DNA from: Gemmatimonadales bacterium | GTDB taxonomy: Bacteria > Gemmatimonadota > Gemmatimonadetes > Gemmatimonadales > GWC2-71-9 | DNA: 64,000 bases | NCBI GenBank assembly: GCA_035519565.1 | Contig: DATIWD010000081.1 | Span: 579 to 64,578 of the forward strand | Direction of reading: 5' to 3' | In this document: piece by piece, positions 17,463 through 37,645 of the stretch | Position numbering within the stretch: the stretch's first letter is position 1 | Layout of the letters: every line of letters starts with the position of its first letter | Translations under genes and position numbers: made by a program | Notes under the pieces: model-generated | The model's database searches: none | What the model was told of the DNA's origin: nothing | Seen by the model: the letters and a program-made list of their open reading frames with translations, nothing else

Positions 17463-20087
17463 CTAAGGCGCGACCGCGGCCTTCAACTCCTGGAGCCAGT
17501 TCCTGACCAGCACGATCTTGGACGCCGTTACCGGTAACCGGCGAACGAAGTAGAAGGCCTGATCCTGGGGGTCAATCGCATAGGAGGTGTGCAAACCATC
17601 GATGTAGTAGTCACCGGCGTTGAACAGCACATGCTGTGAGACGATGGTGAACCGATCCCCTGGGGCGTACTCTGCGGCCACCAGGTTCCCGTTGAGGTCC
17701 CGATAGTACAGCTCTCGCCTGGTGTTGGCCCAGAGGGACTCGATTCCGCCGCTCCGGGACACCTGTTGCCGAGCCGTACCCACCTGGGGGAACGGGCGTA
17801 CGTAGATCTCCAGGCGGCCCGATTCATTGGAGGTATAGGCCAGCCAGTGGCCATCGGGCGACAAGGCGGGACTGGATTCCTCGGCCTCGGTCGCGGCCAG
17901 CGGCGTTCCTGGCGGGCTGTCTACCCCGAACCGCAGCCCATAGATATCCCGCCGACTCCCGGAGCCGATCCGGTAGATGATCCATTTTCCGTCACGGGAC
18001 CAGAATCCTTCATCCACACTTCGCGGGGCGCTCAGCACTTGTCGGGCCTCAGCACTTCCGTCGGCCGGAACGCTAAACAGCCCCTCCCGAAGACCCAGAC
18101 GGTCGGACAGAAAGAGGAGCGAACGGCCGTCGGGCGCCCAGGCGGGCCGATAGTTGAGGGTCCCGCCGGAGGCGAGCCGGGTGAAGGGGCCATGATCCAA
18201 CTCCTTGACCCAGAGCTCGAAGCTCCCGTCATGGAGGACACTGACGGCCAGTCGATCCCCTCGTGGCGAGAGTGCCAGGGTCCCAAAATCGCCGGTCCAG
18301 GAGGAGTCCACCGGTTGCTCCTGGCCATCGCGCCGCACCCGGACCACCTCCGCCTTCGGTTGATAGAGGTGATAGAGCAGGGTTCCATTCCGGGAAAGCG
18401 CGAACCGCGGCGTGCCCCACTCGATCCGGATCCCCTGGACGATCTGGACTGGTCGGCTCGAGATGGTCAGCCGGCCGAGGTCGAAGCGGGCCACCATCAG
18501 GGTGCCGTCCCCTTGCAGGAACACCAGATGCCCGGTCCTGGCATAGATGGCCCGGCCGCCCTGAGTGAGGACCTTGAGATTGTGGGTAGCTAGATCGACG
18601 ACGGCGATATCCGAGGGGGCCTTGGCCCGGATGATAGTCACCAGCAGCTGTCGGTTACCTGGAAGCACATCCGGATAGGCGAACAGGAGTTCATCCTTGG
18701 CGGGATCCGCTCTCGCCATCATCTCAGGCGTGCCCCCTGACGGCCGGATTCTCATCAGAGTGCCGCCAGTGCCCGCGACGTAATAGATCCACCCGTCGTC
18801 GCTCCACGCTCCGCCCCATCCGGATACCGAGTCGGCCACCAGGATCGACACCGACCCTGCATCCAGCGATACCAGCTTGAGCGCTCCCGGATATCCGGTA
18901 CCCATGGCGAGCATCTTCCCATCCGGAGAGAAGAAGGGCGCCAGACCGTTCTCGGTCCCCGGGATCCGTTTCGGCTCGAGCTGATCCTGGTCCAGCTCGA
19001 AGATGCCATAGGGATTGATCGAGTCGGCGAACACGATCCGCGATCCGTCCGGGGAAATCACCGGCAGATCGTTGGCCCAGACCGCTCCCAGGTTGCCGAT
19101 CACCGAGCGGATCACGGGTCCAGGCGGCGGAGGACGAAACCAGCCCCATGCTGCGACCACGGTGGCCAGAGCGGCGGCGATCCAGCCGAGCCAAGCTATC
19201 GGTCGCTGCTTTGGCCCGACCACGGCTGGTCGAGGCGGTTTGGGCCCCGTCGCCGTCGTGCCGCTCAGGGCGGCTCCGAATTCCGCCGGTCCCGCGAAGC
19301 GATCGGCCGGCAGCTTGGCCAGCGCCGTGAGCACCGTGTCCTCCACCGTTTCCGGAACCGTCTCCCGCACGTGCCGAACCGGAGTCGGTTTCTCGGTCAT
19401 GACCTTCGCCACTACCGCCTGGGCGGTGGGGCCCGTGAACGGAGGCTCGCCCACCAGCATCTCGTAGAGCACACAGCCGAGCGCGTACACGTCGGTCCGC
19501 GCATCGACAGTGCGGTCCCCCATAGCCTGCTCGGGACTCATGTAGTGTGGCGTCCCCAGCGACATCCCGGTCTCGGTCATCCGGGAGCCGCCGGCCGCGC
19601 TCACCGCCAGCGCGATCCCGAAATCGGCCACCAGCGCCTGCCCGTCGTGGAGCATGATGTTCTCGGGCTTGATGTCGCGGTGGATGACATGATGGCGATG
19701 CGCGTAATCCAGGGCCGACGCCACTTCGGTGGCGATCCGCACCGCGTCATGAATGGGGAGCTGGGTCTCGCGGTTGAGCCGGTCCCGGAGCGATTCGCCC
19801 TCCACGAACGGCATCACGTAGAACAGGAAACTCTCGGCGTGGCCGGAGTCAAACAGCGGGAGAATGTGAGGGTGCTGGAGCGCGGCGGTGGTCTTGATCT
19901 CGGCGAGGAACCGATCGGCGCCGATCACCGCGGCCAGCTCCGGCCGCAACACCTTGACGGCCACCTTGCGATCGTGCCGGAGGTCCTGGGCCAGGTAGAC
20001 CGTCGCCATGCCACCATGACCCAACTCGCGCTCGATCCGGTAGCGGTCGGCGATGGCGCTGGCCAGTTGGTCGAACGAGGTAGTCAC
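17463..20087 (-). CDS. Receptor Ser/Thr protein kinase K1: Hanks kinase + TM + PD40/TolB-like beta-propeller
   Basis: Kinase motifs are GHGGMATVY, VAVK, HRDIKPEN, DFG and GTPHYMSPEQ. The TM segment is IAWLGWIAAALATVVAAWGW. Blades repeat as SPDG/APDG (ISPDGSRIVF, FFSPDGKMLA, WAPDGRSLLF, ALSPDGHWLAY). I place the start at GTG 20085-20087 (VTTSFDQLASAIADRYRIE). The tracked ORF extension to 20858 overlaps the GGDEF-EAL gene. Confidence 0.9.
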   Translation of the reverse strand: MTTSFDQLASAIADRYRIERELGHGGMATVYLAQDLRHDRKVAVKVLRPELAAVIGADRFLAEIKTTAALQHPHILPLFDSGHAESFLFYVMPFVEGESLRDRLNRETQLPIHDAVRIATEVASALDYAHRHHVIHRDIKPENIMLHDGQALVADFGIALAVSAAGGSRMTETGMSLGTPHYMSPEQAMGDRTVDARTDVYALGCVLYEMLVGEPPFTGPTAQAVVAKVMTEKPTPVRHVRETVPETVEDTVLTALAKLPADRFAGPAEFGAALSGTTATGPKPPRPAVVGPKQRPIAWLGWIAAALATVVAAWGWFRPPPPGPVIRSVIGNLGAVWANDLPVISPDGSRIVFADSINPYGIFELDQDQLEPKRIPGTENGLAPFFSPDGKMLAMGTGYPGALKLVSLDAGSVSILVADSVSGWGGAWSDDGWIYYVAGTGGTLMRIRPSGGTPEMMARADPAKDELLFAYPDVLPGNRQLLVTIIRAKAPSDIAVVDLATHNLKVLTQGGRAIYARTGHLVFLQGDGTLMVARFDLGRLTISSRPVQIVQGIRIEWGTPRFALSRNGTLLYHLYQPKAEVVRVRRDGQEQPVDSSWTGDFGTLALSPRGDRLAVSVLHDGSFELWVKELDHGPFTRLASGGTLNYRPAWAPDGRSLLFLSDRLGLREGLFSVPADGSAEARQVLSAPRSVDEGFWSRDGKWIIYRIGSGSRRDIYGLRFGVDSPPGTPLAATEAEESSPALSPDGHWLAYTSNESGRLEIYVRPFPQVGTARQQVSRSGGIESLWANTRRELYYRDLNGNLVAAEYAPGDRFTIVSQHVLFNAGDYYIDGLHTSYAIDPQDQAFYFVRRLPVTASKIVLVRNWLQELKAAVAP

Positions 20088-37645: not shown

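Follow-up and report, generated by a model that had tools for sequence, protein, structure and literature searches.

Old paralogous Hanks-type sensor kinases clustered around one PP2C phosphatase in a Gemmatimonadales genome

Does a dense array of Ser/Thr kinase genes with an embedded phosphatase gene work as one signalling unit, or is it a changeable gathering of paralogs? The question is raised by a stretch of 64,000 nucleotides (the window) from a Gemmatimonadales bacterium (GenBank assembly GCA_035519565.1, contig DATIWD010000081.1, positions 579 to 64,578), itself part of a 104-kb soil-metagenome contig (ENA ERZ27256589), in which six Hanks-type kinase genes (K1-K6) lie on the minus strand with a single PP2C-type phosphatase gene between K4 and K3. 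A first-pass annotation, made from the sequence alone, had proposed that the six kinases form one signalling unit of an undescribed kind. The analysis reported here leads us to consider it likely that the locus is a birth-and-death cluster of old paralogous sensor kinases, which has grown and shrunk around the one PP2C.

Kinases, sensors and phosphatase

The predicted members of the array, in the direction of transcription, are:

K6, 35483..37645, minus strand: 720 amino acids (aa); kinase domain (aa 1-280), TolB-N-like 'AVLPF' module, TPR array and TPR end-of-group domain; Pfam Pkinase E 2e-53
K5, 33284..35458, minus strand: 724 aa; paralog of K6; kinase domain, TolB-N-like module and TPRs (Pfam, AlphaFold2)
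K4, 30557..33214, minus strand: 885 aa; kinase domain, transmembrane (TM) helix at about aa 298-318, two tandem beta-propellers (Pfam, AlphaFold2)
PP2C-type Ser/Thr phosphatase, 29578..30465, minus strand: 295 aa; predicted cytosolic; its 3' end and the K3 start share 4 nucleotides (nt)
K3, 26930..29581, minus strand: 883 aa; kinase domain, TM helix, double PD40 propeller (Pfam)
K2, 24260..26926, minus strand: 888 aa; kinase domain, TM helix, double PD40 propeller (Pfam)
K1, 17463..20087, minus strand: 874 aa; kinase domain, TM helix, double PD40 propeller (Pfam); the outlying member of the array

All six kinases match Pfam Pkinase strongly (E 1e-49 to 1e-53; 168-182 bits against a cut-off of 31.7), and regular expressions located the whole catalytic motif set in each (G-loop, VAxK, alpha-C Glu, HRDxKPEN, DFGIA and T-x-T-G...SPEQ). 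No further HRDxKPxN motif was found in the whole 64 kb. Judged by sequence, K1-K6 are complete PknB-like Hanks-type Ser/Thr kinases for which phosphotransfer activity is predicted; the nearest catalytic domain is that of Mycobacterium tuberculosis PknB (E 1e-57), followed by PknE, StkP and PknA.

Two sensor architectures follow these catalytic domains. K1-K4 each have a single hydrophobic helix at about aa 297-320, weaker in K4 (Kyte-Doolittle 1.46), and a C-terminal region matching Pfam PD40 (E 1e-19 to 1e-29), with 6-8 S/A-P/R-D/N-G motifs per protein. The first-pass annotation had made its proposal depend on these regions folding as beta-propellers. An AlphaFold2 model of the post-helix region of K4 (565 aa, built with 55 aligned homologs) is all-beta with about 45 strands at high confidence (pLDDT 92.4, pTM 0.88), and in a Foldseek search of the PDB every hit was a protein with a pair of tandem propellers (LRP6 E3E4, tricorn protease, Aip1 and EML-type; probability 1.0). 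Precomputed domain matches to Tricorn_N and Tricorn_2nd agree with a double propeller, and the ground for refutation named in the first-pass annotation falls away. K1-K4 are therefore predicted, from hydropathy and from the modelled fold, to be single-pass receptor kinases with extracytoplasmic double propellers. Orthology of these sensors with TolB was rejected (TIGR02800, 85-97 bits against a cut-off of 343), as only fold and repeat type are held in common.

K5 and K6 are built differently. An 'AVLPF' motif at about aa 301 is accompanied by strong Pfam TPR matches, and in K6 by NCBIfam TPR_END_plus (95 bits against a cut-off of 32). No hydropathy window exceeds 1.6 in either protein, i.e. 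there is no TM helix, and no signal peptide was found in either, from which a cytosolic location would follow. The AlphaFold2 model of K5 aa 286-430 (pLDDT 83) is a beta-alpha-beta-alpha-beta3-alpha domain that matches the TolB N-terminal domain (TM-score about 0.65), PelC, GNA1162, LpoB, FlgT, CsgG and the periplasmic domain of CadC. Taken whole, the K5/K6 sensor resembles HilA/EilA (E 1e-15) and CadC (E 1e-12) in NCBIfam, both below their cut-offs. The two proteins are 74% identical over the kinase domain and 62% over the sensor. Elsewhere in the window, at 58061-59515 (minus strand), a 484-aa protein without a kinase domain has TPRs flanking a CsgG/TolB-N-like module of the same type.

The phosphatase matches Pfam PP2C_2 (E 9e-16; 58.5 bits against a cut-off of 24), carries the metal-binding Asp motifs (RRENQD, ADG, SDG and TDN), and has no membrane helix by hydropathy. 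Its start codon is the ATG at 30465, with a Shine-Dalgarno sequence (GGAGG) 7 nt upstream that is kept in relatives. Identity with the Stp1 equivalog was rejected: NCBIfam Stp1/IreP gives E 3e-50 and 170.8 bits against a cut-off of 230, indicating a related PP2C instead.

The intergenic distances from K6 to K2 are 24, 69, 91 (K4-PP2C), -4 (PP2C-K3) and 3 nt (K3-K2), a DUF885 gene lies 5 nt before K6, and K1 is set apart from K2 by 4.2 kb holding an acyltransferase gene, a conserved 77-aa gene and a PAS-GGDEF-EAL gene. About 21 consecutive minus-strand genes, from about 47.6 to 13.6 kb (about 34 kb), are separated by very short gaps or 4-nt overlaps; this run holds AraC-type HTH, response regulator, MerR, LemA, M48, GPAT-like, TPR and DUF885 genes, the kinase block, and MFS and ProDH genes. 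Because packing is equally tight throughout, it does not by itself set the kinases apart as a unit; tight packing is a property of the region and is not kinase-specific. Consensus promoter and terminator scans of 17-37 kb gave no signal beyond shuffled expectation, and an Rfam scan of 15-42 kb found no RNA family. G+C content is about 67% across the window, in which no compositional island was seen.

At the level of parts, the first-pass annotation has held up well: the six kinases lie where it had placed them, the spacing was right (91 nt measured where about 90 had been given), there is exactly one embedded PP2C, tightly joined to K3 and K2, and Pfam matched all four domains it had expected (Pkinase, PD40, TPR and PP2C). 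Domains and sequence identities likewise support its two sensor architectures among paralogous kinases, the propeller type with one TM helix and the 'AVLPF'-TPR type with none. It passed over two features, the 4.2 kb between K2 and K1 and the extension of the tight packing well beyond the kinases.

Age of the duplicates and erosion in relatives

Pairwise identity among the paralogs is 58-83% for kinase domains and 30-40% for PD40 sensors. Synonymous divergence (dS) is 0.7-1.4 for all pairs, near saturation (kinase domains 0.7-1.2, sensors 1.2-1.4), so the duplicates are old and recent gene conversion is absent. The best nucleotide identity between kinase-domain copies is 79%; together with their dS this rules out recent tandem duplication or gene conversion as the cause of the likeness of the kinase domains.

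Purifying selection acts on the genes that have been retained. Between orthologs, kinase domains have an omega of 0.02-0.06 and sensors one of 0.06-0.10 (in K2, 0.02-0.03 and 0.08-0.10, respectively), and the flanking DUF885 gene has one of 0.07-0.11; the similarity to flanking genes indicates that the retained kinase genes are functional.

Both sensor families are very large and their members come mostly from Gemmatimonadota. Clustered at 90% identity (E<=1e-10), each comprises more than 7,000 clusters (7,185 for the K4 sensor, at least 8,000 candidates for the K5 sensor); of sequences clustered at 50% identity, 13,837 representatives match the K4 sensor with E<=1e-30. Single window kinases have separate orthogroups (K4 at 53-61%, K1 at 60-84%). 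A literature search found nothing specific on Gemmatimonadota kinases, and both of these very large kinase architectures appear to be uncharacterised so far.

Is the array kept as a whole in other genomes? Synteny was anchored on the PP2C, at 77 genome loci and 80 metagenome loci annotated with hidden Markov models made from the window's own domains. The closest relatives of the window are all Gemmatimonadales/Gemmatimonadaceae metagenome-assembled genomes (MAGs), and only the two closest (loci L084 and L004) share the flanks of the block (M48, GPAT-like, TPR, DUF885 ... GGDEF/EAL, MFS, ProDH). In L084 (PP2C 92% identical) the order is DUF885, a K5 ortholog (91%), PP2C, a K2 ortholog (93%), acyltransferase and GGDEF/EAL; in L004 (PP2C 86% identical) it is DUF885, a K6 ortholog (93%), PP2C, a K2 ortholog (91%), GGDEF/EAL and MFS. 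The sensor of K2 is the sole PD40 sensor retained in both (93% and 91% identical). Conservation of the block as one unit is not supported: its closest relatives have only a TPR kinase, the PP2C and a K2-type kinase. A fixed kinase-phosphatase operon would keep the same genes in the same order; L084 and L004 have two kinases each, and the pairs differ.

Further away the composition varies still more. Kinase neighbours were counted for PP2C homologs flanked on each side by 3.5 kb or more: 2 of 2 homologs at >=80% identity have one, as do 3 of 30 at 55-80% and 12 of 36 below 55%. The best non-self homologs of K5 (76-77%) and the K1 homologs at 61-63% are solitary in unrelated contexts, a K1 ortholog (85%) follows GGDEF/EAL in L169, and relatives from the K4 orthogroup (53-61%) stand in other co-directional kinase arrays without PP2C (L165 and L166). 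L014 has a separate array, K-K-amidohydrolase-PP2C-K-K-K, in which the three kinases after PP2C are of the PD40 type. When stop-to-stop open reading frames around all 157 loci were clustered in search of a conserved PP2C neighbour, a procedure that is noisy at 67% GC, no family occurred in more than 27 loci.

The missing kinases have left traces, which were mapped by aligning L084 and L004 to the window with blastn. Past DUF885, L084 has K6 codons 1-9 and then codons 710-721 of the same gene, ahead of a spacer and a complete K5; that only the two ends of K6 are left points to an internal deletion. On the 3' side of PP2C, K3 codons 1-25 run directly into K4 codons 868-882 and then into K2 from codon 6. 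The K4 relic measures 43 nt (91% identity, E 4e-10; peptide VVVFNWLQEIRSRL), and by informative sites the gene 3' of the relics resembles K4 over its first 18 or so codons and K2 from there on. The L084 contig stops short of the position of K1. In L004, the stub after K6 consists of K5 codons 699-725 (81 nt, 85% identity, E 8e-20; peptide IENDPDFSSLRGDPRYQAILARM). The gene 3' of PP2C in this locus resembles K3 over its upstream region and as far as about the GSGGMATVY codons, and K2 beyond them, with a clean switch of informative sites. The crossovers of both chimeras, K3::K2 in L004 and K4-like::K2 in L084, lie in conserved 5' kinase sequence, in the GSGGMATVY region. Taken together, the stubs and chimeras imply that the common ancestor had at least K6, K5, K4, K3 and K2 around PP2C. 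Relatives have lost kinases by recombination, partly in near-identical 5' kinase sequence, yielding in-frame chimeric genes.

The order of the ancestral genes can be proposed more loosely. The K5-PP2C spacer of L084 is composed of the first 13 nt of the window's K5-K4 spacer and the 3' part of its K4-PP2C spacer. Judging from this composite spacer and from where the K4 relic lies, the ancestral order may have been PP2C-K3-K4-K2, K4 having shifted upstream in the window lineage to give K4-PP2C-K3-K2. A proposed exchange of 5' ends by K4 and K2 gains no support either way from the N-termini of K4 and K1 orthogroup members, which are too variable. The K5-K4 and K4-PP2C spacers also share the sequence (G/C)CATTTTGGC (33224-33233 and 30499-30508, minus strand), about 20-45 nt before the start codon, and it recurs upstream of PP2C in L084 and L004. 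The corresponding motif, CCATYTTGGC, shows no enrichment across the window, with 10 matches where 7 are expected; the likeness is probably the trace of one ancestral spacer behind both, and a regulatory site is less likely.

A unit, a core or mere neighbours

How might such a cluster work? As members of a birth-and-death cluster, the kinases would be parallel, individually dispensable input channels, not subunits of one machine. K1-K4 would hold a PknB-like catalytic domain in the cytoplasm and, beyond the single helix, periplasmic PD40/tricorn-like double propellers that bind ligands; being merely 30-40% identical, the propellers presumably bind distinct ones. K5 and K6 would be soluble, their TolB-N-like and TPR module of the HilA/CadC type presumably docking protein partners. 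By analogy with PknB and PknD, binding of a ligand or partner would lead to autophosphorylation of the T-x-T activation loop, each kinase would then phosphorylate targets in the cytoplasm, and the local PP2C, by analogy with PstP, would reset both kinases and substrates.

Several points weigh against this account. Co-transcription of the genes and their sharing of one PP2C are argued from spacing and analogy. Every structural relative found in the PDB for the 'AVLPF' module is an envelope protein, which makes the cytosolic placement of K5 and K6 less than certain. The proposed ancestral gene order is a model from three genomes and is held loosely. Finally, the TPR kinase, PP2C and K2 sensor kept in both relatives could be a functionally coupled core. 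The PP2C-kinase junction, with its 4-nt overlap, has outlived two independent deletions, and this persistence together with retention of the trio makes some local coupling plausible, at least of PP2C with the downstream kinase. A stronger version, in which TolB-N/TPR kinase, PP2C and K2 receptor kinase, a set retained throughout this clade, make up a true three-part module of an undescribed type and the other kinases are interchangeable plug-in inputs swapped by 5' recombination, seems to us unlikely. Were it correct, the locus would be a bacterial analogue of modular receptor-kinase repertoires, and in the TolB-N/TPR sensor a fold known in all other cases from envelope proteins would have a cytosolic version.

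We give a similarly low probability to an integrated hub, in which all six kinases and PP2C would be co-transcribed and act together, through cross-phosphorylation or heterodimers, to bring periplasmic and cytosolic cues (envelope or peptide surveillance) into one output. The co-directional genes from K6 to K2, spaced by -4 to 91 nt, would fit such a hub, but the roughly 21 unrelated genes of the same run are packed just as tightly. Kinase domains far more conserved than sensors are compatible with shared partners or substrates; however, PMC12077195 describes this pattern as the norm in bacterial membrane Ser/Thr kinases. Retention of the TPR kinase, PP2C and K2 sensor in both reduced relatives, and putative secreted peptidases at the block edges (DUF885, M48 and the Xaa-Pro-dipeptidase-like amidohydrolase), would also agree with a hub. 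The losses speak against it: four of the six kinases are absent from L004 (K1 and K4 undetected, K5 reduced to a 27-codon stub), at least K6, K3 and K4 are lost as intact genes from L084, and K5 and K6 substitute for each other. In addition, K1 and K5 orthologs are solitary elsewhere and K4 relatives occur in arrays lacking PP2C. The proposal that the six kinases act as one signalling unit is thus not borne out: K5 and K6 can stand in for one another, and relatives can do without K3, K4 and K1.

At the other extreme, the genes could be mere neighbours from a huge paralogous family, uncoupled even from PP2C, as a by-product of tandem duplication and slow decay. Old duplicates, variable content, the great size of both kinase families and the presence of a kinase neighbour in so few PP2C homologs at 55-80% identity are what this would predict. 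It accounts poorly for the overlap of the PP2C stop with the K3 start, and for the persistence of that junction in relatives, where the K3 5' end remains in L004, joined to K2, and a K3 stub remains in L084. Moreover, PP2C has a kinase on each side in both close relatives, and L014 independently has PP2C followed by three PD40 kinases. We regard this explanation as quite improbable, somewhat more so than the hub.

An anti-phage defence island based on kinases of the PD-T4-6, MADS or BREX-PglW type is very improbable. PADLOC models for PD-T4-6 and mad6 do match all six kinases (E 1e-65 to 1e-99), and one K4 relative lies among toxin-antitoxin genes, but the PADLOC matches are confined to the generic kinase domain (aa about 10-290), and the curated NCBIfam models score far below their cut-offs (MAD6, 170-204 bits against 460; PglW, 76-96 against 990). 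These scores rule out identity as a known defence system. No partner defence genes were found in the window, the flanks of the block are conserved housekeeping and signalling genes, and a TM helix with a periplasmic propeller receptor is unlike the architecture of PD-T4-6, MADS or BREX-PglW systems. Misassembly of repeats into an artificial array, conceivable for a short-read metagenome contig with kinase domains up to 79% identical in nucleotides, can be given next to no credence, since no copy pair is similar enough to collapse, K6-K5-start of K4 recurs in identical order and with the same K6 protein on two JGI contigs from other samples, identical K4, K5 and K1 proteins occur on further JGI contigs, and relics of K6, K5, K3 and K4 lie at the expected places in independently assembled relatives.

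Known systems and neighbouring genes

Of described loci, the M. tuberculosis pstP-...-pknA-pknB cluster is similar in that PknB has the nearest catalytic domain, the T-x-T loop motif is shared and a PP2C gene is co-directional with several Hanks kinases. The sensor of PknB consists of PASTA domains, whereas those of the window are double PD40 propellers or TolB-N and TPR modules; rodA, pbpA and FHA genes are absent here, and composition varies even between species of one clade. PstP is membrane-anchored, unlike the window PP2C. PknD resembles K1-K4 in having a kinase domain, a single TM helix and an extracytoplasmic beta-propeller, but its sensor is a single six-bladed NHL propeller and theirs are two tandem PD40/tricorn-like propellers. 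Orthology with PknD was rejected because the NCBIfam PRK13184 equivalog matched only the kinase domain (154-171 bits against a cut-off of 839).

For K5 and K6, the comparison is with M. tuberculosis PknG and the soluble kinase-TPR families Strep1, Myxo1 and GN-NS1 (bioRxiv 10.1101/2025.01.12.632604), which likewise have C-terminal TPRs and no TM helix; the TPR array of PknG-like kinases is thought to serve protein-protein contacts. Unlike PknG, K5 and K6 have a TolB-N-like alpha/beta module inserted between kinase and TPRs, and the rubredoxin-type N-terminal Cys motifs of PknG are not present in them, the kinase domain starting at about aa 18-23 with no Cys upstream. Orthology with PknG was likewise rejected by the NCBIfam equivalog models. 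The same 2025 atlas of bacterial kinases finds TPR to be the only accessory domain recurring across families and mentions neither Gemmatimonadota nor PD40.

The idea that the system is of an undescribed kind does not survive comparison with the kinomes of Myxobacteria and Planctomycetota. PMC11032199 (and Perez et al. 2008 as cited there) describes numerous paralogous membrane Ser/Thr kinases with beta-propeller (WD40) or TPR sensors in these groups, some of them adjacent duplicates, and duplication and recombination are invoked as drivers of kinome expansion, for example in 'Ca. Uabimicrobium amorphum' (PMC11032199). The present locus differs in belonging to Gemmatimonadota, in having PD40 rather than WD40 propellers, and in being an old, eroding cluster with mapped recombination scars rather than a recent species-specific burst. 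It is a gene-family cluster of the ordinary sort, with shifting content, rather than a new signalling machine of fixed make-up, and the biology it shows belongs to a known kind.

Gemmatimonadota are abundant in soil and genetically almost unstudied, and the locus is a well-resolved example of how a bacterial kinase repertoire turns over: homologous recombination in the conserved 5' part of the kinase sequence removes genes, leaving stubs that can be dated, and fuses the start and upstream region of one gene to the sensor of another. What is new here is that the history of erosion has been mapped, that domains have been assigned in two very large kinase families of Gemmatimonadota, and that a minimal retained trio can be named. 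That trio (TPR kinase, PP2C and K2 sensor) is the obvious first experimental target.

The genes surrounding K1 are:

Small acyltransferase, PlsC-like, 23617..24234, minus strand: Pfam Acyltransferase E 3e-9; 25 nt past K2
Conserved 77-aa gene, function not assigned, 23199..23432, minus strand: no Pfam match
Membrane PAS-GGDEF-EAL protein, predicted to act in cyclic di-GMP (c-di-GMP) turnover, 20147..22930, minus strand: Pfam EAL E 2e-72, GGDEF E 3e-48, and PAS
Secreted amidohydrolase, Xaa-Pro-dipeptidase-like, 15964..17421, minus strand: Pfam Amidohydro_1; NCBIfam XaaProDiPepCaul E 6e-47, under its cut-off

The acyltransferase gene is present in L084 and not in L004. The 77-aa gene is intact in both (94% and 87%, respectively), beginning in L004 2 nt past the K2-type kinase. 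The PAS-GGDEF-EAL gene is conserved in L084, L004 and L169; in L004 (13975-16754) the ortholog lies in two frames joined at 16293, owing either to a frameshift or to an error of long-read sequencing in this MAG. K1 and the amidohydrolase together form a clean indel relative to L004.

Amidohydrolase genes stand by PD40-kinase arrays in three lineages (window 15964-17421, minus strand; L014 6973-8340; L165 12987-14297), and the one in the window encodes a signal peptide. It is possible that the amidohydrolase is an accessory to K1; the recurrent pairing with PD40 kinases may be functional or a coincidence.

Another array appears to be decaying within a region rich in mobile elements: in L164 (ENA ERZ841155 NODE_317, 1-14853) a K4-like kinase lies beside several kinase/PD40 gene fragments, interleaved with VapBC and Phd/PIN toxin-antitoxin pairs, a NikA-like gene and a type IB topoisomerase. 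Among the more distant PP2C homologs, a subfamily 41-44% identical to that of the window (L043-L052 and similar loci) regularly has beside it a divergently transcribed kinase of some 1,100 aa, whose C-terminal region differs from those of the window kinases. Just downstream of the block, the segment 10965-13122 (plus strand) holds a response-regulator/HD-GYP-type gene and one of response-regulator/HisKA type; counting the PAS-GGDEF-EAL gene as well, c-di-GMP and two-component signalling genes are plentiful in the neighbourhood.

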